From a phage, in the sequence record PV636258.1: a DNA stretch of 64,000 bases; one strand, written 5' to 3'. How positions within the stretch are numbered: position 1 is the first letter of the stretch; each line of letters begins with the position of its first letter. The translations under genes were made by a program, and so were the position numbers. Shown here one piece after another: positions 1-49,666 of this stretch. The notes beneath the pieces were generated by a model. It was given only the letters and a program-made list of their open reading frames with translations, had not been told where the DNA came from and made no database searches.

Positions 1-54
1 GTCAACAACCCAGAGCCGATAACAGACACCATATGGTTAAAACGCACAAACTGA

Positions 55-393
55 TTAAGGTGCGTTGGTATTGGAGCGGTTGGTAATTATTTCAAAATGC
101 GTCAGTAAACGGTACAGTAATTTCCCACCTATTCTATGGACTATGGTGGTTGACTTTAGGTTAACCACCACACCATCTAGTCTCCCCGTCAACACAAATG
201 TTAAACGAATGCGAAGGATATCACTGCCTTCAGAACGCATTATTTGACAGTCATGGATGTACCCTATTTCTTTCCCTTTGAGGACAAGAGGAACATGTGC
301 GCTTTCCTTTAACAGGGTATCTAAATTTTCAAATAAAGGTTCTTCTTTGTTATTGACGGAATACACCGTCTCTAATATCGGGAATTTATACAT
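55..393 (-). CDS. hypothetical protein (112 aa)
   Basis: ATG at 393..391; abuts upstream ORF stop; no recognisable motif. Confidence 0.45.
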   Translation of the reverse strand: MYKFPILETVYSVNNKEEPLFENLDTLLKESAHVPLVLKGKEIGYIHDCQIMRSEGSDILRIRLTFVLTGRLDGVVVNLKSTTIVHRIGGKLLYRLLTHFEIITNRSNTNAP

Positions 394-394
394 A

Positions 395-856
395 TCATGG
401 CACCAACGTAATCACAATCATGTTGAGTACCGTATCAACCGCGACACCAGAATCTTCTTCATGGATAGTTGATGCACGTAAATGAATGTCAGAAATATAA
501 TTGTCTATATGCATCGATGTCAAATAAGGGCGGTGCTGATACACAGGACGGTTGACCTGAACATATTCACGCAGAATGCTAAATGAAAAGTCTTCACATT
601 GAGTGGTGTCAATGCGCAAAAATCTTTGAGCATGGCAGGTCTTTAACTCGGTCACTTTCCCCAAATAATGGAGGTCTCCGGATGAACCGATACGGAACAT
701 CACGTCTACTTCAGATTTGAAAATTTCGCGTTCAATAAGGGTCGCTGGTGCCCAACAAACTTCTTCCTTGTCTTCTGGGAATAACGTATCGATCACTTCA
801 GGCAATTGGATGTAACCGAAGTTGTGACGAGGGTTGGTCAGTAATTTGTTAGACAT
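395..856 (-). CDS. hypothetical protein (153 aa)
   Basis: ATG at 856 with AGGGG Shine-Dalgarno upstream; start overlaps stop of 849..1091 ORF. Confidence 0.5.
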   Translation of the reverse strand: MSNKLLTNPRHNFGYIQLPEVIDTLFPEDKEEVCWAPATLIEREIFKSEVDVMFRIGSSGDLHYLGKVTELKTCHAQRFLRIDTTQCEDFSFSILREYVQVNRPVYQHRPYLTSMHIDNYISDIHLRASTIHEEDSGVAVDTVLNMIVITLVP

Positions 857-1091
857 TTTGTGCCCCTATTACGTGCTCCGAGGCTTGTTCATAAGCTGTA
901 CGGAGTTCAAGATAAGAATCGGCTAACAGAGGAGATTTTTCATTGCTTCGGTTCATGATTATTTGGTGGTTAACGACAGCACGGCGTAATCTGAGTTCTG
1001 CCACCCAGAATGCTTTTTGTTTGGCGTGTCCTGGACGGGCGCGTAGGTCGTGATAATGCATAGAAGCATGATATATTTCAGAGTTGGTCAT
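849..1091 (-). CDS. hypothetical protein (80 aa), first gene after an early promoter
   Basis: ATG at 1091; sigma70-like promoter and hairpin directly upstream. Confidence 0.5.
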   Translation of the reverse strand: MTNSEIYHASMHYHDLRARPGHAKQKAFWVAELRLRRAVVNHQIIMNRSNEKSPLLADSYLELRTAYEQASEHVIGAQNV

Positions 1092-1141
1092 GATGTAGTA
1101 CCCGCTTTCAATTTGTGGCGTTGGCCAATGAATTACTGGGA

Positions 1142-1170
1142 AGTATAAGCGCAGGATTTATAGAAGTAAA
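1142..1170 (-). promoter_or_regulatory. sigma70-like early promoter TTTACT-N17-TATACT
   Basis: minus strand reads TTTACTtctataaatcctgcgctTATACT immediately after hairpin 1171..1187. Confidence 0.4.
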
Positions 1171-1190
1171 GCCCCTCGATGAGGGGCTGG
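1171..1190 (-). terminator. GC hairpin (gcccctcgatgaggggc), putative terminator
   Basis: perfect stem with 3-4 nt loop downstream of 1196..1582 ORF; short T-run follows on minus strand. Confidence 0.4.
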
Positions 1191-1195
1191 TCGGG

Positions 1196-1582
1196 TTACT
1201 TGATGAAGAGTACCAGAGGCAGGTTTGTGCCCTTGTCTACCACGTACAGAGCGTCATCGCCCTTCTTGAACATCAGCTGGTCGTTCTCGTACATCAGCTG
1301 AGCTTTACGGGCGTCGTTTTGGAAATCTTGGTACAGTTCTGGTTCTTCAGATAACAGTTCCGGGTCGATCAGGTGCACTTCTTTAGATCGCAACTCTTCC
1401 TTGGTCAGCGCCGCCCCGTTACGCAGGGCATCACGCAGGGCACGCAGGATAGAGCGCGGGTATCTCTCCCCGTGGACGTTAAACGCAAAGGGGACTTGTT
1501 TAAGGAACGCTCTGGACTTCGCCAGGCCTTGGATAGGGAAAGAGATGGTGGCTTCTAATACGGCTGGTGTGTTCAGATACAT
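1196..1582 (-). CDS. hypothetical protein (128 aa)
   Basis: ATG at 1582; preceded by promoter-like element. Confidence 0.5.
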   Translation of the reverse strand: MYLNTPAVLEATISFPIQGLAKSRAFLKQVPFAFNVHGERYPRSILRALRDALRNGAALTKEELRSKEVHLIDPELLSEEPELYQDFQNDARKAQLMYENDQLMFKKGDDALYVVDKGTNLPLVLFIK

Positions 1583-1630
1583 GATATAGTCCTTCTGGTC
1601 AAATGTGGCGTTGTTGCCGTGACCTAGAAT

Positions 1631-1658
1631 ACTATAAACCAGGTTTTTGAAAAGTAAA
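1631..1658 (-). promoter_or_regulatory. sigma70-like early promoter TTTACT-N16-TATAGT
   Basis: minus strand TTTACTtttcaaaaacctggttTATAGT after hairpin 1659..1675. Confidence 0.4.
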
Positions 1659-1684
1659 GCCCCTGGGTTAGGGGCTTTGAAAGA

Positions 1685-1909
1685 TCAGCGTTTCAAACTT
1701 GCGGCGAGTCCAGTAACGTCGGTCACGGTTTGGTCAGCCAGAACAATCACGGGCATAGACATGCGTTGCTTACCAGTGATTTTCTGTAATTCTTCCAGCT
1801 TGTAGTCTTTGTCTAGCTTCAGAATTTGGTGTTCAATACCGCGAATGCGACAGATGTTTTCAGCTTGTAAACATTGCGCACAACCTTGTTTGGAATAAAT
1901 CGTAATCAT
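1685..1909 (-). CDS. glutaredoxin/NrdH-like redoxin (74 aa)
   Basis: CAQC active-site motif near N-terminus (KQGCAQC); sits directly downstream of nrdB; AGGTGA SD. Confidence 0.75.
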   Translation of the reverse strand: MITIYSKQGCAQCLQAENICRIRGIEHQILKLDKDYKLEELQKITGKQRMSMPVIVLADQTVTDVTGLAASLKR

Positions 1910-1918
1910 TTCTCACCT

Positions 1919-3022
1919 TTAGGCAAATTTCAGACCGTCGGAGACTGATCCAGTAAGGACACCAGTCAGATAATCAGGGGCTTCCGCTTCCTGTAATGCA
2001 TATTGCATTGTTTTATTATCTAGCCACTCATTTATCCATGGCACCGGATTGTCTTTACGGGCTTGTCCTGGATATGGGTGGCCAATAGCTCCCATACGGT
2101 GTGTTGCCAACCAGTCCACCATTTGATGAAGGATATTTGCATTCAGTCCCAGCATTGAGCCGTCTTTGAACAGATAATTCGCCCATTCTTTTTCTTGGTT
2201 GACAACGTCGACATACACCTGGGTCATTTCGCCGCGCAGTTCTTCTCTAATAATGGCAAAATCAGGGTCCATCAGTGGCAGACGGTTCAGGAAAGTCTGG
2301 GTCAGGATGAGGTGATCTTGCTCATCACGAGCAATCTGGCGGATGATTTTAGCGTTGCCTTCCATTTTGTTGAGGAATTGCATGAAAGCCCAAGAACACG
2401 CGAATGAAACATAGAAACGAACGCCTTCGAGGGAGTTAGCAGCAAACAGAGCACGCCAGAATGCACGCTTGGCGTTCATGATGTCTTCACGGGTGAACGC
2501 GCGTCCAGCCATACGCATCCCGCTGTAACGCACCATGTCGTCGTAGTATACGCTGATCTGTCCGGCGCAATCGACGATCTCCTGAACGTCCAGAACATGG
2601 TCAAAAACGATACCAGGATCATTCACTGTGTTACGAAGGATATGCGTGTAAGATAGTGAGTGGATGGCTTCTTGGCGCGTCCACTCCAGAATAGCAAATT
2701 GCGCTTCTGGTGTTGATGCCCATGGGCCAAACGCTTCGAACGGAGCAGCGCCCTGAATAGAGTCCAGCATGGTTTGGCGTTTCAGGTTGCTGAAGTAGAT
2801 GTGTTGTTCCGCAGCGGATAGAGTGGCAAAGTCCGCTTTGTCTTTGGTGACATCCACTTCTTCCGGACGCCAGAATTGGCTGAGGCCTTTTTCATACCAT
2901 TTTTGAACAAAAGGCCAAGCCACTTTGTCATAACGCTGGATACTTACAGGGTCGCCAAAGAACGGCAAACCTGTATTATCTGAAGATGGGTCAAATACTG
3001 AAAATTGCTTTTGTTCGTTCAT
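1919..3022 (-). CDS. nrdB: ribonucleotide reductase class Ia beta subunit
   Basis: 367 aa; strong resemblance to E. coli NrdB throughout; AGGAAA SD before ATG 3022. Confidence 0.95.
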   Translation of the reverse strand: MNEQKQFSVFDPSSDNTGLPFFGDPVSIQRYDKVAWPFVQKWYEKGLSQFWRPEEVDVTKDKADFATLSAAEQHIYFSNLKRQTMLDSIQGAAPFEAFGPWASTPEAQFAILEWTRQEAIHSLSYTHILRNTVNDPGIVFDHVLDVQEIVDCAGQISVYYDDMVRYSGMRMAGRAFTREDIMNAKRAFWRALFAANSLEGVRFYVSFACSWAFMQFLNKMEGNAKIIRQIARDEQDHLILTQTFLNRLPLMDPDFAIIREELRGEMTQVYVDVVNQEKEWANYLFKDGSMLGLNANILHQMVDWLATHRMGAIGHPYPGQARKDNPVPWINEWLDNKTMQYALQEAEAPDYLTGVLTGSVSDGLKFA

Positions 3023-3092
3023 GTTTATTTCCTGATGAATAAGGGGTGACGAATCACCCCTGATATTAAACGATTGTGTGGTATAGACCTAA

Positions 3093-5369
3093 TCAAACAA
3101 CACAGGTGTCACAAATTTCTTCAACTTGTTTCAGCTCCTCGTCTTCCTTGGAGTCTTTGTTGGTGTTGTAATACAGAGTTTTACCACCCCACATGTAGAA
3201 AGACAGAATATCCTGCATCATAAGAGAGCGCGGGATCTTGCCTTCTGGATATTTCTCTGGGTCATACCATGTGTTGGTGCTGATGGATTGATCTACCCAA
3301 CGTTGTATGACCGCCGCCGTCTTCAGGTATTCAATACAATCCAGATTCCATTTCAGGTCATATAGAGGACCAAGGGTTTCTACATCCGGAACGATCTGTT
3401 TATAGACGCCGTCCTTGCTGCCTTTGATGCTGATGAGACCTTTTGGTGGCTCTATACCGTTCGTTGCGTTCAGCACCTGAGAGGAGCTTTCAGTTGGTGC
3501 TACGGCTAACAACGTGGCGTTACGGATCCCATACTCGGATAGGTTCTGCTTCAGACCTTCCCAGTCAAGACCATAGGCTTGCCCAACAGGCTTTTTGCCA
3601 TTGGGTAGGATGTCCAGCGGGAGAGGCTGAAGGTCGGCTGTTACAAATCCGGAATCATGGATAGTTGACTTCTTACAAGATCCGAAACGCATGGCCAGAC
3701 GGTTGGACGCTTTGACCAAGTAGAAATGAAGATGCGCCATCCACTTGTCTAGAAGTTCTAATCCGATAGGCGATCCATAACCCGTGAAATTCTTGGCCAG
3801 GAAATGTGCGACGTTGACGATACCGATACCCAGAGGACGATATTCTTCTACGGCCAAACGGGCTTGGCGAGCTGGATAGTCCTGATATTCCAACAACATA
3901 TCCAAAGCTGAAACCAGAACGAAAGCAACATCTTCCATTTCTGTTGGATCTTCAAATGCCGTCAGGTTAAATGATGCGAGTGTACATAGGGCAATGCGAC
4001 CATCTTCATCATCATACTGTTGGAACTCACGAGTCGGGAGCGCGATTTCTAAACATAGATTAGAGCTATAAATCGTGTCCAAATTGAACGGACTATACTC
4101 GTTCATGTGATCAACGAATGCGATGTAGATCCGGCCAGTGTCAGAACGCTGGTCTAGTAGCATTTGGAACACTTCTTCAGCTTGCAGCTTTTTGGAACGA
4201 CATAATCCGGCGTCGGCGGCCTTGATCATATTGTCGTACATTTCGCGGAATTTATTGACGTCTGCGAAAAATGCTTCATACATTTCGCGGTTGTCTTTTG
4301 GATCAAACAGGTATAGAGGCTGTTTGTTCACCAGGCGCTCGAACATGACGCGGTTAATCTGAATCCCATAGTCGATACGGCGTTCACGGTTCTCTTCCAA
4401 TCCACGGTTGTTTTTGAGAACAACGACATCATCAAATTGATAATGCCAGATGGGAACATAGCATGTTGCCGATCCACCACGGATACCGCCTTGAGAGCAA
4501 GACTTCAGGGCACCAGTCAAATACTTGATGAATGGAACCAGACCTGTATGGACCATTTCCCCTTTACGGATAGGGCTACCGATGCCACGAATTGCCCCAA
4601 CATCGAATCCGATGCCAGCACGTTTGGAAACATAATCCACGATGCTTTTCGCAGTGGCATTAATTGAGTCCAATGTATCACCAGTTTTGATCAATACACA
4701 AGAGCTGAACTGTCGGGTCGGGGTGCGGACGCCGGACATAATAGGTGTTGGAAGACTGAATTTGCCTGTACTGGCGTATTCATAGAACTTCTTCACCATT
4801 GTCAGTCTGCTTTCTTTATCCCACGCTGAGAATAATGCCATAGCGATTGCCATGTACATGACTTGAGGGGTTTCATAATACACTTTGCTGTCAGAAGAAC
4901 GATCACGCAAAAGATATTTTTGAGTCAGCTGGCCCATTGCTGCCCAAGTGAAATTCTTGTCGCGTTTGTGGTTGATGACTGTGTTAAGTTCTTCGAATTC
5001 TTCTTTAGAGTAAAGTTCGAGGAATTCGCGGTCATAAACACCCAGCTTGGTGTTCTTTGCAAAGATATCCAGCAAATGAGGTGGCTTGTATTGACCATAG
5101 ACAACCTTTCGCAGGTCATACGACTTCAGGCGGGCAGCAACATATTGATAATTGGGTTTATCAACAGAAATTAAGGTGGCCGCAGCTTGGATAATGATAT
5201 CCTGAATGCGTTCGGTTTTCATGTTATCGGTGAATTGAATCTTCGATGCAGCTTCCACCTCAGACACCGATACTCCTTCAAGGCCGTCACATGCTCGTTC
5301 AATAACGGTATGGAGTTTTTCAATGTCAAAGGGGACAGAAGATCCGTCCCGCTTTATGATGTTAATCAT
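3093..5369 (-). CDS. nrdA: ribonucleotide reductase class Ia alpha subunit
   Basis: Near-colinear with E. coli NrdA (ATP cone MINIIKRDGS..., SLPTPIMSGVRTPTRQFSSCVLI, NLCLEIALP); start moved to ATG 5369 with GAGGAT SD rather than track start 5420. Confidence 0.95.
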   Translation of the reverse strand: MINIIKRDGSSVPFDIEKLHTVIERACDGLEGVSVSEVEAASKIQFTDNMKTERIQDIIIQAAATLISVDKPNYQYVAARLKSYDLRKVVYGQYKPPHLLDIFAKNTKLGVYDREFLELYSKEEFEELNTVINHKRDKNFTWAAMGQLTQKYLLRDRSSDSKVYYETPQVMYMAIAMALFSAWDKESRLTMVKKFYEYASTGKFSLPTPIMSGVRTPTRQFSSCVLIKTGDTLDSINATAKSIVDYVSKRAGIGFDVGAIRGIGSPIRKGEMVHTGLVPFIKYLTGALKSCSQGGIRGGSATCYVPIWHYQFDDVVVLKNNRGLEENRERRIDYGIQINRVMFERLVNKQPLYLFDPKDNREMYEAFFADVNKFREMYDNMIKAADAGLCRSKKLQAEEVFQMLLDQRSDTGRIYIAFVDHMNEYSPFNLDTIYSSNLCLEIALPTREFQQYDDEDGRIALCTLASFNLTAFEDPTEMEDVAFVLVSALDMLLEYQDYPARQARLAVEEYRPLGIGIVNVAHFLAKNFTGYGSPIGLELLDKWMAHLHFYLVKASNRLAMRFGSCKKSTIHDSGFVTADLQPLPLDILPNGKKPVGQAYGLDWEGLKQNLSEYGIRNATLLAVAPTESSSQVLNATNGIEPPKGLISIKGSKDGVYKQIVPDVETLGPLYDLKWNLDCIEYLKTAAVIQRWVDQSISTNTWYDPEKYPEGKIPRSLMMQDILSFYMWGGKTLYYNTNKDSKEDEELKQVEEICDTCVV

Positions 5370-5453
5370 AGCGATCCTCGGTTTGTGTTTATGCAGGCTG
5401 TTATTATACACCGCCTCCATGGATTGAAGGCGGCGGGGAAGTTCGTGTGGTAT

Positions 5454-6293
5454 TTAAATGTTGTACAGGTCGTTAATTTCTAACATCAGGCGGGTGAAGT
5501 TGCCGCGACCATTACGATCAGACTTATCGAATTCGATGATGCTGAATGGTTGAACCCACTCTGGATATTCATCTCCGATTTCTACACCGTCAATTTGCAA
5601 GGAACCTGTTTCCAGCTTATTGTTGAAGTCTTTAAAGGAATCCACATACGTCTGTAACGCACTGTCACGCAGTCGCTTGTTAGACTGTTTGATATCTCCA
5701 TTCACGAAGATGTACGAAGAATCTGAAGCACGAGTCAACAAGTTTTTCAGCTGCTCCATATCACATTCCTGTGCTTCTTCAATAATCAGGAAACAATCAT
5801 CGAAAGTCATCCCCTTTACAGTTTCAAGGTCTTGAATTTCTATGATGCGTTTCTCCCACAGATAGTTGAAGAAACCGTCGGAACCCGTATCTGTTTTGAG
5901 AACCTTTTTAAATGTCTGTATGAGCGGCATCAAATAAGGCATCAGCTTTTCATATGTGTCACCAGGCCGGAACCCTGCTGTGGTACCAGTTGGAAGGGGA
6001 GAACGTGTGATGATGATCTTGTTGATTGTTTTGTCTATCAGATGTTTTGCTGCAGCAGATGCACCGCAATAGGATTTGCCTGTACCTGCCGGACCGATTG
6101 CGATAGTGAGGTGTTCGTTTAATGCGGATTGATATGCGAGGTTCTGATTTTCTGAGAGGCCATTGAACGGAGCAATTTTGAAATCACCTTTAGAAAATTT
6201 CATCCAGTCTTCTTCTTTCTGGATGGTGTCTTTCTTACGAGCAGATTTTGTCTTCGCTGGCTTCATGGATACAACTTTAGACGCAGATTGCAT
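5454..6293 (-). CDS. phoH: PhoH-like ATPase
   Basis: Walker A GPAGTGKS, PhoH-like layout; track start is GTG at 6329, ATG 6293 with AGGAAGG SD preferred. Confidence 0.85.
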   Translation of the reverse strand: MQSASKVVSMKPAKTKSARKKDTIQKEEDWMKFSKGDFKIAPFNGLSENQNLAYQSALNEHLTIAIGPAGTGKSYCGASAAAKHLIDKTINKIIITRSPLPTGTTAGFRPGDTYEKLMPYLMPLIQTFKKVLKTDTGSDGFFNYLWEKRIIEIQDLETVKGMTFDDCFLIIEEAQECDMEQLKNLLTRASDSSYIFVNGDIKQSNKRLRDSALQTYVDSFKDFNNKLETGSLQIDGVEIGDEYPEWVQPFSIIEFDKSDRNGRGNFTRLMLEINDLYNI

Positions 6294-6370
6294 GTTGAAC
6301 CTTCCTATATCTACAGGGGTTGTCGACACCTTTAATTAAGCGACACGCCCAGCATACCTGTATATCAGAT

Positions 6371-6395
6371 AAAGAAAAAGGCCGTTTCCGGCCTT
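6371..6395 (-). terminator. rho-independent terminator after endolysin gene
   Basis: hairpin aaggccg/cggcctt followed by TTTTCTTT on the minus strand. Confidence 0.55.
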
Positions 6396-6400
6396 GAGAA

Positions 6401-7195
6401 TTAGCAGAAACTCTTGTATGCTGCCGCCAGTTTAGTATCATACTGGTTTTTCGCATATGCCGGACCATTGTACCGACGAGCAAACTCGGCCCAATTCTTG
6501 TTCTTCAGGGCTTTCCACATATTGGCATCTGCCTTGATGAACTTGACAAATGCCAGAAGGTGAGCGCGTTCACCAGTCAGGAAATCAGTGAACATCTCTT
6601 TGGCATTTGAATAGCCACAGATTTGGCAGTTGAACCCCATGATCTGGAATAGGCCGTAGGAAGCACTCTCGTAAGCGCAGTCCTCGTCAAGGGCGATTGC
6701 ACCCTGAAGGCGTTCCAACTCCGCGTCTCCGCCGATATACCCGCCAGAATTGGGGTTAACCAATGTTGGATAGAGTTGGTACAGAGCATTGGCTCTTGCT
6801 TGCCCGAATTTGGCCGTCACCTTTTTGTACATGATGTGGCGCTCAAACAGAGTTTTGATCTTGCCAGTTTTGGTAAAACCCGTGCCACGGGATTCTACCT
6901 GATTCACAGCTTTCATACTGGCCAGCTCAACACCAAGTTCACGTGCTGCGTCAACCAAGTCCGCTTCGGTCAGATGTTCCTGGTGAGCGTCTCCAGCGTT
7001 TCGGATAGCATAGAAGGTCTTTGGCCCAGCAATACCATCAATAACCAATCCAGCACCTGCCTGAACGGATTTGACAGCATTCTCTGTTGCCTTACCAAAT
7101 ATGCCATCGGCTGTAAGAGAGAAACCGATTTTGTTGAGGCTTTGTTGAAGTGCTTTGACTTCAGAACCTCGGTTGCCAAGTTTTAGAATGGCCAT
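6401..7195 (-). CDS. endolysin: N-terminal peptidoglycan-binding domain plus C-terminal muramidase-like (DUF3380-type) domain
   Basis: N-terminus LKLGNRGSEVKALQQSLNKIGF...DGIFGKATENAV matches PG_binding_1; C-terminal domain resembles phage N-acetylmuramidase family; GGAGGT SD before ATG 7195. Confidence 0.8.
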   Translation of the reverse strand: MAILKLGNRGSEVKALQQSLNKIGFSLTADGIFGKATENAVKSVQAGAGLVIDGIAGPKTFYAIRNAGDAHQEHLTEADLVDAARELGVELASMKAVNQVESRGTGFTKTGKIKTLFERHIMYKKVTAKFGQARANALYQLYPTLVNPNSGGYIGGDAELERLQGAIALDEDCAYESASYGLFQIMGFNCQICGYSNAKEMFTDFLTGERAHLLAFVKFIKADANMWKALKNKNWAEFARRYNGPAYAKNQYDTKLAAAYKSFC

Positions 7196-7262
7196 AAGAA
7201 AATACCTCCGCAATGTATGCGAAGGTATTTAAAGTGAAAGTCGAACTTGAGGAACTGCTGGG

Positions 7263-7598
7263 TCACATCTGAGGCAACAAGGCCGCTATTTTCTCGACCT
7301 TTTGGCGTAGATGGATATACGCTTCTGAAGCCGATATGCCACGTCCTTCTAATGAATCCCGCCCGATGATTTTCACCGACCAGAGTTTCTCATACTGGTG
7401 GTAAGTCATCAAAAAAGATCCACGACACATTTTGATGTCTGCGTCCTCTATGTTTCTGAGTACTTTCCAGTCCGCCTGGCCCAAAGAAATTCTGAGTTCA
7501 TACAGAGCGAGCCTTGACAATTCCAAGTTGCTCTTAGGACTTCCTTCTGGGAAGCCTGACTCGGTTATGACCAAAGCCTCTTGTTTTGTCGGTTTCAT
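7263..7598 (-). CDS. hypothetical protein (111 aa)
   Basis: ATG 7598, ATGA overlap with upstream ORF. Confidence 0.5.
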   Translation of the reverse strand: MKPTKQEALVITESGFPEGSPKSNLELSRLALYELRISLGQADWKVLRNIEDADIKMCRGSFLMTYHQYEKLWSVKIIGRDSLEGRGISASEAYIHLRQKVEKIAALLPQM

Positions 7599-7783
7599 CT
7601 TGATACCACCACTGGCATGATTTCGCTGAAGGACGTACGAACTTCGGTGTCGTACCCGTATTTTTCAAATATTTTCAACATTGCTTGTTCCAGTTCCTCT
7701 TGGAACTGAGGAAAGTGCGCGTTGGGAATTCGGTCGGCAACCCATAGAGCGCCAGGAGAGGCTTGGATAATTGCTCTACTCAT
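7595..7783 (-). CDS. hypothetical protein (62 aa)
   Basis: ATG 7783 with AGGAGA SD. Confidence 0.5.
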   Translation of the reverse strand: MSRAIIQASPGALWVADRIPNAHFPQFQEELEQAMLKIFEKYGYDTEVRTSFSEIMPVVVSR

Positions 7784-7838
7784 GTCTCATTCTCCTACCA
7801 AAACTTTGAAAAAGAGGGGAGAAACCTCCCCCTTGCGG

Positions 7839-8327
7839 TTAAGCCAATTTGTTCACCAGAGTTTCTACTGCGTCGGCGCTCAGTTTACCCATTTTGACAT
7901 ACTGGGATTTCGCTTCACCGCCAGCGGCTTTCACGATATCACTGTTGTCATAACCCTTTTTCGGGAATACCATCACGGAGAATGTTCCGTTGTTCAGCGG
8001 GTTCAGCTGAATACGACCTTTACCGACTACGATGGTGCCGTAAGTTTCGGTATTCGCTTCAACAACGTGGATGTCATGGCCCAGGTCTTTCAGCATGCCA
8101 ACTTTGTCAGCAGTCTTGGCAACTACGGCTTTGTCTACGACAACCTGCTCTACCAGGGTGAAGCCGTTGGTTGCTTTCACTTTGCCGTTCAGCAGATTCA
8201 TGAAGGAAGTTTTGCCACCAGTGAATCCAGCTGCCTGAGCGATGCGGAACATCTCAACTTTTGCAACTTCGGTGTTCAGCTCAAAAGAGATGGTGCCGTT
8301 GGTGATCAGAGTTTTGGTAGTAGCCAT
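7839..8327 (-). CDS. hypothetical protein (162 aa), first gene after early promoter
   Basis: ATG 8327 with GAGGA SD; track start 8363 rejected. Confidence 0.6.
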   Translation of the reverse strand: MATTKTLITNGTISFELNTEVAKVEMFRIAQAAGFTGGKTSFMNLLNGKVKATNGFTLVEQVVVDKAVVAKTADKVGMLKDLGHDIHVVEANTETYGTIVVGKGRIQLNPLNNGTFSVMVFPKKGYDNSDIVKAAGGEAKSQYVKMGKLSADAVETLVNKLA

Positions 8328-8404
8328 GATGTAATTCCTCATAATGTAGTTGGGTCGTTTCACTTTTCATTCGGCGGTGTGTTGTGTACCGCCCTATGTG
8401 AACT

Positions 8405-8433
8405 ATAATAGTGCATCATTATTGAAGAGTAAA
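8405..8433 (-). promoter_or_regulatory. sigma70-like early promoter TTTACTcttcaataa...TATTAT
   Basis: minus strand TTTACTcttcaataatgatgcacTATTAT in AT-rich spacer 8400..8520. Confidence 0.45.
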
Positions 8434-8469
8434 GTCTTTTTCAATAAATTTTTAAATTATTTTTGAAGT

Positions 8470-8500
8470 ATTTTAAAAGGCCTCATAGAACGAGGCCTGA
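8470..8500 (-). terminator. rho-independent terminator
   Basis: hairpin aggcctc/gaggcct followed by TTTTAAAATAC on minus strand, downstream of 8527..8736. Confidence 0.5.
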
Positions 8501-8526
8501 AGGGAAATAATTTGAGTTAAAAAGTT

Positions 8527-8736
8527 TTAGGTCGGCTTCTTTTTCAAATACTGGCGAGCCAAATCCATTTGTTCTTCAGTGATAGGACAACCGCCGAAGT
8601 CCACCATTCCATTCCTCCAACCATGGATGAAACTCTTAGATTCTAAGCCAGATAGGACATATCCTTCACGGGCTTGCATATACCCGCGAAGAATCTCTTC
8701 ATCGTCCATACTATTCAGTTCTTTCAAATCCATCAT
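8527..8736 (-). CDS. hypothetical protein (69 aa)
   Basis: ATG 8736, ATGA overlap with primase stop. Confidence 0.5.
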   Translation of the reverse strand: MMDLKELNSMDDEEILRGYMQAREGYVLSGLESKSFIHGWRNGMVDFGGCPITEEQMDLARQYLKKKPT

Positions 8737-9797
8737 ATCTTCCTCAAGTCAGAAAATCGTAAGGACGCCGACAGTCCCTGATATACGTTCTTGGCCATGA
8801 TCTGAAGCAGATCACGTATCGGGATATTTCCCTTGTCGGGGCGAACCATATCATTGATATCCTTCCACGGTATTTCCGGTGGAAACAGAACGACTTTGAC
8901 TCCGCTGTCTATCATCTTCTGTATACCGTCACAAACTTGTTTGTTCCTGTATTGGTTATCGGGGATATAGATGTCCCCCTTAGCACTTAATAAGTCGGCA
9001 TCGGCAGTCGCAAGACAATTAGGTAGAAACAAGCTATCAATTGGACCTTCTACTACCAACTTTGTTTTGTTCCAAATGATGCGCTCTTCCCCGTAAATCT
9101 TAGTGTCTTCGTTCTTAGGCTTGACAGTGGCATACCGTAATACCCCATCAGGAAGGTTATCGCCGAATGCGCGCCCCTGAACTATCTTCATGCGCCCGTC
9201 TTGGGTCCAGAATGGGATTACCAGCCGCTCATCTTCGGGTATCTTCTTCTGCTTCTCAACATCCGTTTCGAAACTCAGAAGATCTTGACGAAAATTTCTG
9301 CTGTAATATAACAAAGATAACGTGCTCTCCGGCATTCCCCTGCCTTCAACATAACGACGGGCGATATGATCACGGTCAAGAAGATCAAGGCGTATCATAT
9401 TCCCAAGGTGCTCTTCATCCCGTTTGGCGACCCGAGAACCGATACGTGCTGTCTGGGTCAGGCGCTGTAGTGGTTTGAGTTTTTGTAACGGGCGGGAACT
9501 GGTATCCCCCATGATTCTGAATTTTTCAAGGTTGTATTCATTATACAGACGCTCGTCAAACTTCTTCAACCAGAATTCAAACGCCCAACCGCTCATTTCA
9601 TTACAGTTGTGGCACTTGAAACGAAACACATCGTCATCACGATCATAAAAGAAGTGACCACGACGCTTGTTAGCACTCTTCTTAGAATCCCCACATAATG
9701 GGCAACGAAATTTGGCGACAGCGCCAACACGTTCCCAGCTGAATTTATCAAGTCGGGGGGCGAGAAAATTGATGTATTGTTCGTCAAGAAATTTCAT
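8733..9797 (-). CDS. 61: DNA primase (T4 gp61-like)
   Basis: N-terminal zinc ribbon CPLCGDSKKS...CHNC followed by TOPRIM-like region with EGPIDSL acidic motif; size 354 aa as T4 gp61. Confidence 0.85.
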   Translation of the reverse strand: MKFLDEQYINFLAPRLDKFSWERVGAVAKFRCPLCGDSKKSANKRRGHFFYDRDDDVFRFKCHNCNEMSGWAFEFWLKKFDERLYNEYNLEKFRIMGDTSSRPLQKLKPLQRLTQTARIGSRVAKRDEEHLGNMIRLDLLDRDHIARRYVEGRGMPESTLSLLYYSRNFRQDLLSFETDVEKQKKIPEDERLVIPFWTQDGRMKIVQGRAFGDNLPDGVLRYATVKPKNEDTKIYGEERIIWNKTKLVVEGPIDSLFLPNCLATADADLLSAKGDIYIPDNQYRNKQVCDGIQKMIDSGVKVVLFPPEIPWKDINDMVRPDKGNIPIRDLLQIMAKNVYQGLSASLRFSDLRKI

Positions 9798-10069
9798 TTA
9801 CCCCACCCGGTCCGGAAAAGGATAGATTTATATTCTTCTACCATGTTCTGGTCATAATGCGTAAGACGAGAATATGCTTTGGCTTCATAACTGTCAGCCC
9901 CAAGTTCAGTCGCCGCCATGGCCGCTTTCATGTTCAATGTGTTTTCATATCTGGATTCCATACCATGGGTTTCCAAATATTCTTTCGCCTGTACAAATCG
10001 GCGCTCACTCGCAAACAAGAAGTCATAATTTATTTCTGAAAATTCTTTGTTGTATGCTGCTAATGACAT
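9794..10069 (-). CDS. hypothetical protein (91 aa)
   Basis: ATG 10069 with AGAGGTG SD; track start 10114 would overlap upstream gene. Confidence 0.5.
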   Translation of the reverse strand: MSLAAYNKEFSEINYDFLFASERRFVQAKEYLETHGMESRYENTLNMKAAMAATELGADSYEAKAYSRLTHYDQNMVEEYKSILFRTGWGK

Positions 10070-10079
10070 AGTACACCTC

Positions 10080-10697
10080 TTAAATCGCGGGCCTCTGGAA
10101 CACTTCTGACACATTATAATCCACCCCGCGACTTTGAGCTATGCAAAGCTGTCTCCATGCACCATATAGAATATTCTGCTCTGCGACTTGATTGCGTTCA
10201 AAGTGGGCGAATTCTTCCAGCATCTGTTTGTACCCCAATAGATAAGGAGGGATATCTGTAGGTCTTCTTTTGCCCAAAGATTTAGACAAATATGATGCAT
10301 AATGTTCCGGTGAAGACAAAGATGAATATTGCATATTTGGAACGTGAACGGGCTTCAAAGATTTTCTAGGGGTGAAGTACAACAAACCCCACTTGGGAGG
10401 GAGGTCTTCAATTTTAATAACATCTGCTGGGCAAACATAGAAACGATATGCTCCCATGCCTATGGAAGGATTCATGCGATGAGGTTTCTTTTTGTCTGTC
10501 AGGAAGTCGGCGCGGGAGACTTTAACTTCCATTAATATAGAACAACCCCCAGGTCTGAACCCGATGGCGTCAGGGGATTCACGATTATCGAATGAATTTG
10601 GTTCTACGAACACAGCACCACAATTCATTTGTTTGTGTAGAAATTTTGCAGCGATTTGACAACCTTCTGAGTGAGAAGGTATAAAGATTTTGCCCAT
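10080..10697 (-). CDS. PD-(D/E)xK-type nuclease-like protein (205 aa)
   Basis: D...EVK arrangement (DAIGF...ILMEVKV) typical of restriction-endonuclease-fold nucleases; assignment by motif only. Confidence 0.5.
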   Translation of the reverse strand: MGKIFIPSHSEGCQIAAKFLHKQMNCGAVFVEPNSFDNRESPDAIGFRPGGCSILMEVKVSRADFLTDKKKPHRMNPSIGMGAYRFYVCPADVIKIEDLPPKWGLLYFTPRKSLKPVHVPNMQYSSLSSPEHYASYLSKSLGKRRPTDIPPYLLGYKQMLEEFAHFERNQVAEQNILYGAWRQLCIAQSRGVDYNVSEVFQRPAI

Positions 10698-10760
10698 TGT
10701 TATCTGTATCCTATTGATGACGAATGGGCAAAATTATAACCTGACGATGATCCTATTGAG

Positions 10761-11114
10761 TTAGGACAGTTGCTTCAGTTTGTAAATCGTTTGATAGCAC
10801 AGAGTCTTGATTTCGTCAAGCGTATTTTGTAAATGGCTATCACACTGATTGTAGATCCCATTAACGTCGATGATCACGCTGTTGATATACGATATCGGTT
10901 CAGGATTGTACAATTTGATGTTCTCGAATCCTGGAATGTATATACCTCCCGCACCAATATACGCTTCCGTAAAGGTGTCCAGCAAGTCCTCCAGTTCCCC
11001 GTAGAACTCCCCGAGTGCCTTGTGCTTGGCATAGGACGTTGTAACGAAGTGGAGGGCATGAGAGTGGGCTATAGCAAGCAGTCCACGGTTGATGAATATA
11101 CTCGCGTTAACCAT
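10761..11114 (-). CDS. hypothetical protein (117 aa), late-promoter context
   Basis: ATG 11114 with GAGGAA SD; CTAAATAC box 31 nt upstream. Confidence 0.55.
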   Translation of the reverse strand: MVNASIFINRGLLAIAHSHALHFVTTSYAKHKALGEFYGELEDLLDTFTEAYIGAGGIYIPGFENIKLYNPEPISYINSVIIDVNGIYNQCDSHLQNTLDEIKTLCYQTIYKLKQLS

Positions 11115-11128
11115 GATTGTTTCCTCAG

Positions 11129-11158
11129 AAAAAGAAATCCCCCTGTATTTAGGGGGAT
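11129..11158 (-). terminator. hairpin terminator containing CTAAATAC box
   Basis: stem atccccc/gggggat followed by TTCTTTTTCT on minus strand. Confidence 0.5.
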
Positions 11159-11163
11159 TGTCA

Positions 11164-11406
11164 TCAAGGCTTGATCAAAGTCAGCTTGACGGTTTCACCC
11201 GTGCTGGTGTTCGTCAGGGTCATAATGTTCTGTGCGTTCACAGACTTCACTTTCCCCTGATGTTTATCCCCGTTGCGATCATAGTAATCAATCAAATCGC
11301 CTTTGTTAGGGCGGCCAACGTCGGTGATGTCATACATGCCCTGCTGTCCAAGACGGCGATGGTCAACCTTTGCTTCCTTCAAGAGGAAGTCCTGGAATCC
11401 TTTCAT
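11164..11406 (-). CDS. hypothetical protein (80 aa)
   Basis: ATG 11406 with AAGGAGG SD. Confidence 0.55.
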   Translation of the reverse strand: MKGFQDFLLKEAKVDHRRLGQQGMYDITDVGRPNKGDLIDYYDRNGDKHQGKVKSVNAQNIMTLTNTSTGETVKLTLIKP

Positions 11407-11415
11407 ACAACCTCC

Positions 11416-11985
11416 TTAGACAGGTTTAACGCCGATATATTTGGCAATGTCCGCAGCTAGGGTTTTTCCCTTACTGATGTCATGCTGTTTGCCAGCGACT
11501 GTGACAATTACATATGGATCGTCTTCTCCGCCGAAGTCGATTGCGACAGGTTTTCCAATACCAGGAATACCGGAATATTCAAACTCTGTACGACCGCTTT
11601 TACGAGATTTGCCAACGCCCAGCGCTTTACCGATCATCTTATCCATGTTCGCCAATTCTTGGGCATAGGATTCTGTGACCTGACCTTTGCTGGCATCTTT
11701 CCCAAAGAAGAACTCAAAACCGTCATGAACGGCAACCACATCTTTACCGACAGAAACTGCATGAACCTGGTCCGGTGTGAGTTTTACTTTGGTGGTGTTG
11801 CCGTTAGTCAATTCCAGATTATAGATGTCGGCCTGATTATCTGGAGTGATCTGGGTTACGGTGGCACCAGTACACCATTGGGTTCCGTCGGCCTGTTTGG
11901 TGATGGTTACACTTTTGCCTTGTATGCCGCCATGAGTTTGCGGTTGTTGAGCTTGTTCTTTAAAATATTCGATAAACGGTTTCAT
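11416..11985 (-). CDS. hypothetical protein (189 aa), late-promoter context
   Basis: ATG 11985 with AGGAGA SD; CTAAATAC 25 nt upstream. Confidence 0.6.
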   Translation of the reverse strand: MKPFIEYFKEQAQQPQTHGGIQGKSVTITKQADGTQWCTGATVTQITPDNQADIYNLELTNGNTTKVKLTPDQVHAVSVGKDVVAVHDGFEFFFGKDASKGQVTESYAQELANMDKMIGKALGVGKSRKSGRTEFEYSGIPGIGKPVAIDFGGEDDPYVIVTVAGKQHDISKGKTLAADIAKYIGVKPV

Positions 11986-12010
11986 CGTGGATCTCCTAAG
12001 GATTTTGATG

Positions 12011-15214: not shown

Positions 15215-15853
15215 TTAAGGTGTTGGGTTGACAACGGGAATATGGAACCTGATCCCAGAGACAATGTCCTTCAACTGTGGCTGCCAACCCGTGACCAAAC
15301 GGGGTAGCGCATTAGAACCAGGATAGACAATAATGATATCGCTTCCGGTTACATTATGTTGAGGGAATTGTGACATGTATTGCTCCATCGTCACCCCTGG
15401 GTCTATCAACACAGGACCGACATCCGAAGATGCATATGTTGCCCCCAAACCGTCGACGCCCCATGCTAATATTCCATAATCAGGAATATTGGCTTCAGAA
15501 GTTATGGTGAATCCGAAGATACGATTCAGCGCAGAAAAATCATACACGCCGTGAGCACTGTCATATGTCAGATAACCCTTTGCCAGCATATCGGCGAATA
15601 TCGCGTCTGTGTCACCAGTTGCCGGAGTCGGTATGGTAAACAATAACTCACCAGCAGGAGGTGATGGATACGTGCCGAGCGCATAAAGGCACCAAGCGTC
15701 AATGCATTTCTTGATGAATGCTTCAGGCGCGACATAATCCGCAAGGCGCATTGTACCGGAATATTCTGAAGTAATGATCCCTTCCTTCGCGCCCTGAATA
15801 GCCAGAAACACCATTATGTGTTCATATCCGGTCTGAGATGGAGTGATATTCAT
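15215..15853 (-). CDS. hypothetical protein (212 aa)
   Basis: ATG 15853 overlapping stop of upstream gene (TAATG). Confidence 0.6.
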   Translation of the reverse strand: MNITPSQTGYEHIMVFLAIQGAKEGIITSEYSGTMRLADYVAPEAFIKKCIDAWCLYALGTYPSPPAGELLFTIPTPATGDTDAIFADMLAKGYLTYDSAHGVYDFSALNRIFGFTITSEANIPDYGILAWGVDGLGATYASSDVGPVLIDPGVTMEQYMSQFPQHNVTGSDIIIVYPGSNALPRLVTGWQPQLKDIVSGIRFHIPVVNPTP

Positions 15854-16470
15854 TATCTGGTCCTCTTGAGTTTCTCAATCGTGCGCTTATTCATGGCGAT
15901 CACTCCTGGGTCGACCTTTGGGTTTATTGCCATGCCTTTGAAAGACACACATCGTTGAAGATATTTAGCCTTCTTCACGACGTCGGCTGCATAAGAATTG
16001 GATTTCTGGTTACGATTGAACCCAGCATTGTAAGAGGAAAGGGATTTGCGGATGTTTTGGTTATGATATTCTAGCCAGAAATTCATTTCATCAAGGGCAG
16101 CATTGGCAGCATATTCTTGATTGACCAGTAATTTGATCGCGACATTGGCGTAACACTTCTGCGTTTTGCATCCCTCCCGTTTCCCGACGGTTTGGACGCG
16201 ATTTTGAAATGCCCCCATATTAGCCGATTTGAGGTTATTCCGCATGGATACAACATCTTCTCCGGCGCGGCTTTCCCTCCATGATATTGCGGCGAGAGTG
16301 AAACCAAGGTCTTGTTGTTTTCCCACGTGATAGGCTGTGGCCATGGTTGAAAGTTGTTGATCAGAAAACTCATAATCACATTGGGTGGTACTTTGGGAAG
16401 CGTGCACACTCCCGCTGGCAATGGTAAAGGTCACGGACAAGGCCATGGCCTTCAACGTTGTCATCGTCAT
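15853..16470 (-). CDS. secreted lytic transglycosylase-like protein (SLT domain) with signal peptide
   Basis: N-terminal signal peptide MTMTTLKAMALSVTFTIASGSVHA; catalytic-type ES motif (WRESRAGED) followed by GAFQ; AAGGAA SD. Confidence 0.6.
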   Translation of the reverse strand: MTMTTLKAMALSVTFTIASGSVHASQSTTQCDYEFSDQQLSTMATAYHVGKQQDLGFTLAAISWRESRAGEDVVSMRNNLKSANMGAFQNRVQTVGKREGCKTQKCYANVAIKLLVNQEYAANAALDEMNFWLEYHNQNIRKSLSSYNAGFNRNQKSNSYAADVVKKAKYLQRCVSFKGMAINPKVDPGVIAMNKRTIEKLKRTR

Positions 16471-16548
16471 GATGGCGTTCCTTATGTGTTTGTCGACTTG
16501 CAGCTCGCTGGAGCCTCCTGACAGGGTTAAAAGATAAAGGGCACGTGA

Positions 16549-16555
16549 TATTTAG
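16549..16555 (-). promoter_or_regulatory. late-promoter-like box CTAAATA in hairpin loop
   Basis: minus strand gggcaCTAAATATCacgtgccc, about 78 nt upstream of SLT gene start. Confidence 0.3.
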
Positions 16556-16566
16556 TGCCCTTCACC

Positions 16567-25263: not shown

Positions 25264-26055
25264 TTATTTGCCGACGTTCAGAATTTTACCTGAGCCGGAT
25301 CCGTCAACGATCAGAGTACATTTCCCGCTGTTGGCGCAAGATTGCAACACCATGTTATATTCGTGTTGTAAATATTCAGATGTCAGAGATGTCGTCAGTT
25401 TCTGATTCGCCTTGGCTTCTTGGTCGCGAATTTCAACGTTCTTTCTTGCTGTATCCAAACGTTTGTCAGCCATGACATTATCACGGATAGATTGCTCAAT
25501 CGAAGGATCTGTCAGCGCCTTTTTCACCAACACGCGTGTGATTGTGAACATGCCAGGCGCAGCAGTTTCCAATTGCTGCTGGGTGCGTTCCTTGATCATC
25601 TTTTCTAACTCAGCCCGTTGGGTGTGAATTGTCATAGAATCCAAAGAAGAAACGGCGTCCATCGTTGAGGATGCTGCGGCGGTTTTAACCAGGTTGAATC
25701 CCACCGCTATCGTGCCGTCACCGAGTTCAGCGCTCTGACCTGCAAATTTGGTATGGAACCAAGGAACCTTCGCGACGTTCGGTGTGTAATAAACGTCCAC
25801 ATCCAGATCTTCCAAGGTCAGGTTGTCTTTGGCCTTTGGCGTCATTTTCGTCAGACTCACGACGGCTTCTTTAGTCGTATAGACATCTACACTTGAAACG
25901 AAACTGGTGTAGATACCTGCGGTTACAGGGTTCATGTCCACTTCACCCCATTGGGTTCGAACACCGACGTTTCCTTCATCGATAACACCGCCGCAGCCTG
26001 AAAGAAGGCTTGTTGCTAGGACCATAATTGCGCCAAATACCAGTTTCTTGAACAT
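25264..26055 (-). CDS. SPFH (band-7/stomatin-prohibitin)-domain lipoprotein
   Basis: lipobox LLSGC after hydrophobic leader; SPFH-like core (EGNVGV...TKEAV...KDNLTLEDLDVDVYYT); AAGGAG SD; ATGA-coupled to upstream small membrane ORF. Confidence 0.65.
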   Translation of the reverse strand: MFKKLVFGAIMVLATSLLSGCGGVIDEGNVGVRTQWGEVDMNPVTAGIYTSFVSSVDVYTTKEAVVSLTKMTPKAKDNLTLEDLDVDVYYTPNVAKVPWFHTKFAGQSAELGDGTIAVGFNLVKTAAASSTMDAVSSLDSMTIHTQRAELEKMIKERTQQQLETAAPGMFTITRVLVKKALTDPSIEQSIRDNVMADKRLDTARKNVEIRDQEAKANQKLTTSLTSEYLQHEYNMVLQSCANSGKCTLIVDGSGSGKILNVGK

Positions 26056-26264
26056 CAATGTACTCCTTCAAAAATGTAAATATAAGCACCCAATGTGAGT
26101 GCAGTTATTGTAACCGAAGAAATCAGCAGTAGGAAAGTTACTCTCACCCGTTTGCGCCAACGTTTACTTCGGTAGATTTTAGTCTCTTTCAAGTATTTGA
26201 AAAAGAAAAATAAAATGAATGTTGAAATTACGAATATGAACAGATAACGGATTAACCCGATCAT
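26055..26264 (-). CDS. small two-helix membrane protein (69 aa)
   Basis: two hydrophobic segments separated by a basic loop (RSKRWRKRVR); translationally coupled to SPFH gene. Confidence 0.5.
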   Translation of the reverse strand: MIGLIRYLFIFVISTFILFFFFKYLKETKIYRSKRWRKRVRVTFLLLISSVTITALTLGAYIYIFEGVH

Positions 26265-26581
26265 ATTTCCCACCCTGTGCTACGCAGATGATCAAAATAA
26301 TCGTTGAGTTCGTCAATATCTTCGATATCAACCCAACGATCATCCAGTCCCATATCATTTAGATCTTCTTCAGTCAGATCATGTTGATAAATCTGAATGC
26401 CCGAAGCATTACAATAATCCGGCTTGATATTGTTGTTGAACTGGAACAAATCATAATCAGCCAGAGTATTCTTCAGGCGCTGCGCTTCTTCAAATGTTGG
26501 AACCTCAACATGAAAAGCGATCCCAGGAACCTGGGGAATATGCCAAACACGAAATTTAAGTTCAAATGGTTTATTCGACAT
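26261..26581 (-). CDS. hypothetical acidic protein (106 aa)
   Basis: ATG 26581. Confidence 0.5.
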   Translation of the reverse strand: MSNKPFELKFRVWHIPQVPGIAFHVEVPTFEEAQRLKNTLADYDLFQFNNNIKPDYCNASGIQIYQHDLTEEDLNDMGLDDRWVDIEDIDELNDYFDHLRSTGWEI

Positions 26582-48020: not shown

Positions 48021-48083
48021 GTTAGCACCTTTGCTGTGGAGAACGTTTTAGTGTTCCTGATACGCGGATTCAGAAAATGGATC

Positions 48084-49455: not shown

Positions 49456-49463
49456 TATTTATA
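49456..49463 (-). promoter_or_regulatory. T4-type late promoter box TATAAATA within perfect palindrome 49435..49460
   Basis: minus strand TATAAATACCCCCAAAATTGGGGGTATTT, 22 nt upstream of ATG 49433. Confidence 0.5.
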
Positions 49464-49635: not shown

Positions 49636-49666
49636 AGCTAACTCCATATGGGTGTGAAGGCAAACA

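Follow-up and report, generated by a model that had tools for sequence, protein, structure and literature searches.

The 64,000-nt stretch of phage DNA analyzed here (sequence record PV636258.1, referred to below as the window) carries at 6401..7195 an endolysin gene with no recognizable holin or spanin gene beside it, and we describe this gene together with the membrane and exported proteins of the same genome that have been, or could be, linked to lysis. The best megablast match (query 5400..9800; 271 phage records) was Salmonella phage vB_SalM_PM10, at 99.5% DNA identity, and the PM10 RefSeq annotation (NC_031128) maps one-to-one onto the window, with the exception of an extra 80-aa gene at 11164..11406. 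By these matches the window is part of the genome of a Kuttervirus Salmonella phage (Vi01-like; Ackermannviridae, Cvivirinae). The minus strand codes for nearly all genes in the window, and the endolysin gene sits amid nucleotide-metabolism and replication genes. All features named in an earlier reading of this DNA are there, on the minus strand, at the positions it gave, and its interpretation is supported in part. Its own features are as follows.

6401..7195, minus strand: endolysin coding sequence, 264 amino acids (aa), 28.8 kDa, isoelectric point (pI) 9.0, soluble (from Pfam, PHROG, PDB and hydropathy)
7205..7209, minus strand: Shine-Dalgarno (SD) sequence GGAGG of the endolysin gene
7224..7233, minus strand: late-promoter-like box TTTAAATACC (a TTTAAATAC box), whose TAAATA core (7226-7231) ends 30 nt before the ATG
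6378..6395, minus strand: intrinsic-terminator-like hairpin AAGGCCGGAAACGGCCTT, then TTTCTTT, directly after the endolysin stop codon

Residues 9-64 of the endolysin match PF01471 PG_binding_1 (Pfam E 2.9e-16; 59.8 bits against a cut-off of 23), and residues 90-263 match PF11860 Muramidase (E 3.8e-58; 197.1 bits against a cut-off of 22.3), the latter over nearly the full length of the profile (positions 1-174 of 175). PF11860, an N-acetylmuramidase family, was formerly called DUF3380. The PHROG match, phrog_1224, is labelled endolysin (E 2.9e-137). Against PDB, the protein aligned to 7RUM with 260/264 identities (E 1e-173). This structure is that of LysT84, from E. coli O157:H7 phage FTEbC1, relative to which the window protein differs by A14S, T28V, T128A, and S196P only, and no functional difference is expected from these four substitutions. 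LysT84, Gp110 of Salmonella phage 10, and El1 of phage Sa157lw have the same PG_binding_1 plus PF11860 architecture as the window protein and come from the same phage genus. Muralytic activity has been shown experimentally for all of these near-identical enzymes, and in the case of Gp110 it was demonstrated to be N-acetylmuramidase activity. Over 5400-9800, a segment that includes the endolysin gene, the genome of Salmonella phage 10 and the window share 98% identity.

A more distant relative points to the catalytic residue. AP3gp15 of Burkholderia phage AP3 (PDB 5NM7) aligned from end to end (E 7.5e-65), with NQVES of the window protein opposite NEVES of 5NM7, so that the catalytic Glu of the VES motif is aligned. 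In AP3gp15, which is 46% identical to the Gp110 homologue, the substitution Glu101Ala abolished 99.4% of activity (PMC5674055). The window enzyme shares with AP3gp15 the two-domain fold family and the single catalytic Glu in VES, but AP3gp15 is farther from it than LysT84 is (E 7.5e-65 vs 1e-173) and belongs to a different phage type and host. By its domain architecture, the window protein is a modular PF11860 N-acetylmuramidase endolysin. The earlier reading, made from the letters alone (the original prediction), had described a PG-binding domain plus a muramidase-like domain and no signal peptide, and both statements hold. There is no hydrophobic segment in the protein (hydropathy maximum 0.99, given here and below as the maximum 19-residue Kyte-Doolittle mean), and the N terminus is the PG-binding domain. 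Because no such segment is present, the endolysin is neither of the signal-anchor-release (SAR) nor of the signal-peptide type. This enzyme is already structure-solved, assayed, and under development as an enzybiotic, and the window adds nothing new on the protein itself.

The layout of the gene is that of a monocistronic, self-contained unit, with a promoter-like box, an SD sequence, the coding sequence, and a terminator-like hairpin. Dickeya phage LIMEstone1 has an identical box with identical spacing, which the authors of that genome annotate as a putative late promoter. Across the window, TAAATA occurs 21 times on the coding strand and 10 times on the other strand, often within CTAAATAC, and the exact T4 late consensus TATAAATA occurs twice. 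Just over half of the coding-strand boxes (11/21) lie 15-40 nt upstream of an SD plus ATG that opens an open reading frame (ORF) of at least 45 aa, with an actual core-to-ATG spacing of 17-40 nt; in a random-position control of 2000 trials, the number of boxes next to an SD plus ATG averaged 1.6 and reached a maximum of 7. Copies are found, among others, at the following positions.

61614-61619, 56833-56838, 55615-55620, 49667-49672, 49456-49461, 46280-46285, 12011-12016, 11146-11151 and 7226-7231, all minus strand: TAAATA

This placement is not chance, and TAAATA behaves, as judged by where it lies, as a late-promoter-like element. The phage also encodes homologues of gp55 and gp33. A literature search on the CTAAATA motif returned nothing useful. 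Because the endolysin box is conserved, TAAATA is non-randomly placed, and gp55/gp33 homologues are encoded, late expression of the endolysin is a reasonable inference from the motif.

Four ORFs lie upstream of the endolysin gene (7263-7598, 7595-7783, 7839-8363, and 8527-8736, encoding 111, 62, 174, and 69 aa), and phoH lies downstream. None of the five encodes a transmembrane domain (TMD), with hydropathy maxima of at most 0.92, and Pfam searches found no domain in them apart from PhoH. In 1..12000, every hydrophobic ORF, in whatever frame, ran antisense to a real gene or lay within one, and is an artefact. The nearest real TMD or lipoprotein genes in the window are at 25.3-26.3 kb, which leaves ~18 kb from the endolysin clear of such ORFs, and a lipobox scan of all six frames of the window (pattern [LVI][ASTVI][GAS]C) returned only 25264..26058 (SPFH lipoprotein) and 48051..48704 (DUF7424 lipoprotein). 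These hydropathy and lipobox scans agree with the original prediction that the endolysin has no membrane-protein neighbours. Nor does a holin or spanin gene lie just beyond the window in PM10: the genes past the left window edge are those for the baseplate and replication, and the first TMD protein to be met, gp012, is encoded ~11 kb away from the endolysin. The gene order phoH-endolysin-small ORFs-primase is common to the window, Vi01, and LIMEstone1, the last of which belongs to another subfamily.

The best explanation, and in our view a highly probable one, is that a soluble endolysin is expressed as a stand-alone late unit in a genome with dispersed lysis genes, and that the holin is encoded elsewhere. 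The T4-late-type TAAATA box of the endolysin gene would be recognized by the phage gp55/gp33 system. The product would accumulate folded in the cytoplasm and, because it has no export signal, would have to await a holin-made membrane lesion. Once at the murein, the N-terminal PG_binding_1 module would hold the enzyme in place and the C-terminal PF11860 domain would cut glycan strands via a single catalytic Glu (E101, VES motif). The identity and domains of the enzyme, its lack of an export signal and of TMD or lipoprotein neighbours, and the conserved promoter-like box and terminator are observed; we infer the late timing, the dependence on a holin, and the identity of the distant holin gene.

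In T4, the lysis genes e, t, rI, rIII, and pseT.3/pseT.2 are scattered in the genome. The phage studied here resembles T4 in its stand-alone endolysin gene with a late promoter or late-promoter-like box, in its dispersed lysis genes, in its large T4-related genome, and in a lysis-inhibition-like phenotype that was reported for its relative CBA120. It is unlike T4 in that the endolysin is a PF11860 enzyme, unrelated to T4 lysozyme; in addition, Pfam, PHROG, and fold searches found no homologue of T4 T, RI, or the T4 spanins. The three jobs to be done, on the membrane, the murein, and the outer membrane, are those of the lambda cassette (S-R-Rz/Rz1), but the lysis genes of the window are without any of its clustering.

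Much of this picture has precedent in the literature. For CBA120, the 2011 paper reported 12 membrane proteins, found neither a holin nor a lysin, and described a lysis-inhibition-like delay when the multiplicity of infection was high. The announcements of the Vi01-like phages Mutine and Mooltan (2019, Center for Phage Technology) described a soluble N-acetylmuramidase endolysin with a PG-binding domain and stated that a holin and spanin "could not be reliably identified." A 2018 spanin census counted 91 "spanin-less" phages, including Vi01, SFP10, SJ2, SJ3, Maynard, CBA120, ECML-4, AG3, and RC-2014, and noted an absence of lysis-gene clustering in T4-like genomes. The isolated endolysin without an identifiable holin or spanin is thus an already published trait of Vi01-like phages and not a new one, and the original prediction did not recognize it as known for a well-studied genus; likewise, the dispersal of lysis genes put forward in the original prediction is correct and corresponds to the T4-like pattern already described for the phage family.

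Some points weigh against a holin-dependent late endolysin without a spanin partner. We found no Ackermannviridae transcriptome in the literature, and the late timing is read from the motif by itself. Spanin annotations exist in related records for two genes at 28.4-29.4 kb and, if correct, would make the statement that there is no spanin wrong; we return to them below. Finally, overexpression of El1, which falls in the 95% identity cluster of LysT84, led to lysis of E. coli from within, and the enzyme was seen in the medium with neither holin nor spanin present; given this result, strict holin dependence is not proven. It is conceivable that the endolysin reaches the murein by itself and that no holin is needed, as the El1 experiment and the fact that no holin has been found in 15 years might suggest. 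We consider this very improbable: the protein has no signal, SAR, or amphipathic membrane-active segment, only low hydropathy and a folded PG-binding N terminus; lysis on overexpression is a common artefact; and the sharp lysis timing and lysis-inhibition-like behaviour of CBA120 imply a holin-type clock.

With a holin encoded elsewhere as the preferred explanation, the membrane proteins of the window become candidates for that role, and the following features bear on the search.

49465..49647, minus strand: small membrane protein of 56-60 aa whose TMD is N-terminal and whose conserved C-terminal tail is basic; a weak holin candidate, though the best that the window offers
26055..26273, minus strand: two-TMD protein, 72 aa, in an operon with the sie gene and the SPFH lipoprotein; no TAAATA upstream
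26261..26581, minus strand: P22 gp17-like superinfection-exclusion (sie) gene (Pfam GP17)
25264..26058, minus strand: SPFH/Band-7 lipoprotein (Pfam Band_7, lipobox)

The TMD of the protein encoded at 49465..49647 has a hydropathy of 2.42. An exact TATAAATA is found at 49667..49674, 31 nt from its ATG, and a second TATAAATA at 49456..49463 serves the next virion gene; both flanking boxes are conserved in Dickeya phage XF4. Homologues occur in 225 phage records (Salmonella, Escherichia, Dickeya, Shigella, Yersinia, Serratia, and Enterobacter phages), down to ~40% identity. This small, late-type, widely conserved single-TMD protein is a testable holin candidate, and it could be the missing holin or membrane-active lysis factor of the Ackermannviridae. 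Its length, one strong TMD, and basic tail would suit that role, as would the exact T4 late consensus upstream, kept in XF4, and a spread over several genera with the fast divergence that is also seen in holins. We nevertheless rate the proposal as rather unlikely. No Pfam, PHROG, or NCBIfam holin model matched this protein or the one at 26055..26273, and the resemblance is one of generic features only (size, TMD, charged tail). The protein was not detected in 45 Klebsiella-phage records that carry the endolysin, and at least 10 other TMD proteins are encoded elsewhere in the genome. Moreover, its gene has a SLOG-domain gene on one side and a virion gene on the other, and its product could instead be an assembly or membrane-anchoring factor; PHROG 289 joins all three as one family.

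The two-TMD protein at 26055..26273 was found in Kuttervirus only (157 records, all at 95% identity or more), while the endolysin occurs in 271 records, those of Klebsiella and Dickeya phages among them. Because its distribution is narrower than that of the endolysin, it is unlikely to be the holin of the family and is better regarded as a Kuttervirus-restricted accessory gene. The whole sie/two-TMD/SPFH operon (25264-26581) is absent from LIMEstone1.

A holin search across the PM10 genome gave ~15 TMD ORFs, none of them in a holin family. Outside the window, the 49-aa gp199 had a sub-threshold match to GTA_holin_3TM (E 0.015). Orphan TMD ORFs of PM10 outside the window include gp110 (L007 2261-2602), gp199 (L007 31757-31906), gp196 (L007 32863-33453), gp012 (L006 7594-7890), and gp191 (L007 38915-39118). 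The first of these, gp110, combines an N-terminal TMD with a coiled coil, an i-spanin-like topology, and lies beside neck genes; none of the five matches a known lysis family. An unannotated 60-aa lipobox ORF that overlaps PM10 gp128/gp129 is likely an artefact, as its host gene is without a TMD and its mature part is hydrophobic and not spanin-like.

A second potential murein hydrolase is encoded in the following setting.

15853..16470, minus strand: GH23/SLT-like lytic transglycosylase candidate, 205 aa, pI 9.7 (Pfam SLT, motifs)
15215..15853, minus strand: DUF7270 protein, 212 aa (Pfam), whose start overlaps the SLT-like stop (ATGA)
16529..16562, minus strand: terminator-like hairpin AAGGGCAC / GTGCCCTT with a 10-nt loop and a T-tail, for the upstream gene

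The SLT-like protein passes the Pfam SLT (PF01464) threshold marginally, with 21.6 bits against a cut-off of 21.3. Across 21 homologues, down to 35% identity, the residues E66, S67, G86, F88, Q89, N90, S146, Y147, N148, G150, and Y160 are invariant, and these make up the GH23 motifs E66-S67, G86xFQN, S146YNxG, and Y160. In a PDB profile search, goose lysozyme topped the list, weakly (E 0.36), with an alignment that runs through RES / SAYNAG / YAND. A GH23/SLT-like identity is supported, and murein cleavage is predicted. The protein shares with Sec-exported GH23 lytic transglycosylases of the goose-type fold the ES, GxxQ, (A/S)YNxG, and Y motifs, a length of ~200 aa, and a signal-like N terminus; it is unlike typical members in its threshold-level similarity and in being the product of a virulent myovirus gene beside a virion gene. 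In a 2022 paper, phrog_600 had already been predicted as lysozyme-like and listed as part of the lysis arsenal of Kuttervirus. In dozens of GenBank and RefSeq records, the same protein carries the label "RegB" or "RNA endonuclease." We found no RegB match, Pfam (E<=0.01) gave SLT only, and NCBIfam gave nothing; on this domain evidence the GH23-like gene is wrongly labelled RegB.

The N terminus of the SLT-like protein, MTMTTLKAMALSVTFTIASGSVHA↓SQ, resembles a signal peptide, with a positive n-region, a 13-residue hydrophobic (h-) region, and a V-H-A↓S site, and it is conserved. The most distant homologue, P0092, has swapped it for a stronger classical signal, and the protein has four conserved Cys. 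The GH23/SLT-like character and the signal-like N terminus are thus supported, but N-terminal hydropathy is weak, with a maximum of 1.12. That the CTAAATA box marks a late gene is not established. The box is indeed present upstream, at 16549..16555, but it sits in the hairpin loop, 78-79 nt from the SLT-like ATG, atypically far against the 17-40 nt of the start-adjacent boxes. Nonetheless, the upstream region is nearly identical in LIMEstone1, and the authors of that genome placed a putative late promoter at the box. TAAATA lies in the loop of a G+C-rich hairpin with a T-run at two places on the minus strand, 16529-16562 and 11130-11160, an overlapping terminator and promoter arrangement that is kept in LIMEstone1.

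Whether the SLT-like gene is a lysis gene, as the original prediction had it, is not established, as it is coupled to a virion gene and its product has been seen in virions. It is the first gene of a two-gene unit that heads a block of virion genes. The second gene encodes the DUF7270 protein, whose homologue in LIMEstone1 (ORF085, 22.75 kDa) is a confirmed structural virion protein; the ViI homologue Vi01_096c, annotated as "phage associated protein," is also a virion component. In CsCl-purified virions of Sajous1, gp211, which is 99% identical to the SLT-like protein, gave 31 spectra, compared with 20 for the tail lysozyme and 6 for the endolysin. The ViI and LIMEstone1 virion proteomes did not report the protein, which makes for detection in 1/3 proteomes.

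Two roles can be proposed on these data. In the first, the SLT-like protein would be a Sec-exported second murein hydrolase that acts late in the periplasm and aids lysis, either by weakening the sacculus in advance or by acting once the membrane is de-energised. We hold this possibility tentatively. It draws on the invariant GH23 motifs with their at-threshold Pfam match, on the conserved signal-like N terminus and its stronger counterpart in P0092, on four conserved Cys that suit the periplasm, on the conservation of the CTAAATA box and 5' region, on the absence of the protein from two virion proteomes, and on its published placement in the lysis arsenal. The weak N-terminal hydropathy speaks against it, as do the Sajous1 spectra, which outnumber those of the tail lysozyme, and the translational coupling to a virion protein gene within a virion block. 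These last observations would fit a second role, that of a virion-associated peptidoglycan hydrolase for entry, supplying a glycosidase that is missing from the tail hub protein, which in this phage family has an NlpC/P60-type peptidase in place of a lysozyme: the CBA120 gp5 homologue has a CHAP/NlpC-P60 domain and no lysozyme, and the block that the unit heads carries late boxes. This, too, is doubtful. The two proteomes that missed the SLT-like protein included its neighbour of equal size, virion assembly in the cytoplasm does not go easily with conserved Cys and a Sec-type signal, and a basic protein of this kind could co-purify with virions, given that the endolysin and the SPFH lipoprotein are in the Sajous1 dataset as well.

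The remaining exported proteins to be considered are encoded by a gene pair 21 kb from the endolysin.

28744..29433, minus strand: 229-aa secreted protein with an all-helical prediction and 4 invariant Cys, labelled "i-spanin" in some records
28427..28747, minus strand: 106-aa secreted protein, a helical bundle whose mature part has 2 invariant Cys; some records call it "Rz-like spanin" or "o-spanin"

Database labels for the pair vary between hypothetical, "i-spanin," "o-spanin," "putative lipoprotein," and "Rz-like spanin." The 229-aa protein begins with MKRLIIAVVLAGLALPATA↓K, in which P-A-T-A↓K comes after a 14-residue h-region; in distant relatives the signals are of the classical cleavable kind. 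It had no Pfam, NCBIfam, or PDB match; a profile search with its family against 1.84 billion representative proteins returned 10 matches, all uncharacterised, and the AlphaFold2 model was poor (mean confidence score, pLDDT, 53.6). The N terminus of the 106-aa protein in the window, MKIKILLLFLCTFMSSQVLA↓AP, has no lipobox, and the six-frame scan does not flag this ORF. Among its homologues, a lipobox is present in 8/39, including a true one (LIAGC) in the Marshall copy, while an A-x-A↓(A/S/T)P signal peptidase I site is nearly universal. The family signal thus switches between the lipoprotein type and the signal peptidase I type over a mature domain that is 64-97% identical, which would be an unusual anchoring polymorphism.

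These two proteins have been annotated as a two-component spanin in Marshall, PS5, several MT0744xx records, and RefSeq. The genes do overlap, by 4 nt (28744..28747), an arrangement that agrees with the adjacent/overlapping-gene criterion for spanins, and both products have an N-terminal hydrophobic segment. An all-helical structure is predicted for the larger protein, PHROG 3843 bears the name "Rz-like spanin," and Marshall, with its lipobox, has been counted as a singleton spanin family. Even so, we find the spanin assignment highly unlikely. The window copy and most homologues are without a lipobox, and the 229-aa protein has a short h-region with an A-x-A site and distant relatives whose signals are cleavable. 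With 75-97% conservation, a globular form, and Cys residues, both mature domains are unlike spanins, which evolve fast, and no TAAATA late box lies upstream of the pair. The group responsible for the Marshall annotation afterwards placed SFP10, Vi01, and others among the spanin-less phages, and in 2019 it described spanins as not reliably identifiable. Complementation of an outer-membrane disruption defect has been proposed as an experiment (PMC6139136). Because there is no lipobox, the signals appear to be of a cleavable type, and the mature parts bear Cys, the pair is probably made up of soluble periplasmic proteins and not of membrane-anchored spanins. The RefSeq labels "Rz-like spanin" and "i-spanin" rest on the lipobox of a minority of homologues and are not to be trusted. 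The original prediction had listed these two as further secreted proteins in the context of lysis; their signal-type N termini bear out the first part, and the comparison with spanins does not bear out the second.

The pair was also compared with T4 holin T, antiholin RI, and Spackle, the first two on account of the lysis-inhibition-like phenotype of CBA120. PDB profile searches were empty, no sequence or fold similarity was found, with the 229-aa model too poor for a search, and the sole BFVD match in the T/RI comparison was to a protein of an Erwinia phage, itself uncharacterised.

Both the SLT-like gene and the secreted pair are separate conserved genes of the phage family, with a putative link to lysis. 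It could be imagined that these phages use a non-canonical lysis set, in which the PF11860 muramidase is freed by a small single-TMD late protein (49465..49647 or another orphan) and helped by the exported GH23 enzyme, and in which the soluble periplasmic pair 28427..29433 takes the place of a spanin, for outer-membrane disruption or for the sensing of lysis inhibition. We think it improbable that this whole scheme is correct; if it were, the holin family would be new, and so would the module for the outer membrane or for lysis inhibition, which would work independently of a spanin. The question that remains in Vi01-like phages is how a signal-less endolysin crosses the inner membrane and how the outer membrane is breached. 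Vi01-like phages are widely used in Salmonella and E. coli O157 biocontrol, and specialist searches for their holin and spanin have failed. What our analysis contributes is a set of corrected annotations (the spanin and RegB labels) and a short list of holin candidates, not an answer to that question.

Some further features were noted in the course of this analysis. The second lipoprotein from the lipobox scan is the following.

48051-48704, plus strand: conserved lipoprotein (Pfam DUF7424) with lipobox LTSC, which is LLVSC in Dickeya phage XF4

With translation taken from the GTG at 48051, this protein has a normal signal peptide, which is truncated when the start annotated in PM10 is used, and the gene is on the strand opposite to its late-gene neighbours. 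The 80-aa gene at 11164..11406 (minus strand), without a counterpart in the closest relative PM10, produces a 242-nt coordinate offset between the two genomes; it is also present in Sajous1 (gp216, with 20 spectra in virions) and in LIMEstone1 (ORF079). Finally, two records deposited as "Enterococcus phage Efm 3-10" (OR844944.1 and OR844942.1) are 97-100% identical to this Salmonella Kuttervirus in several regions and are probably contaminated or mislabelled.

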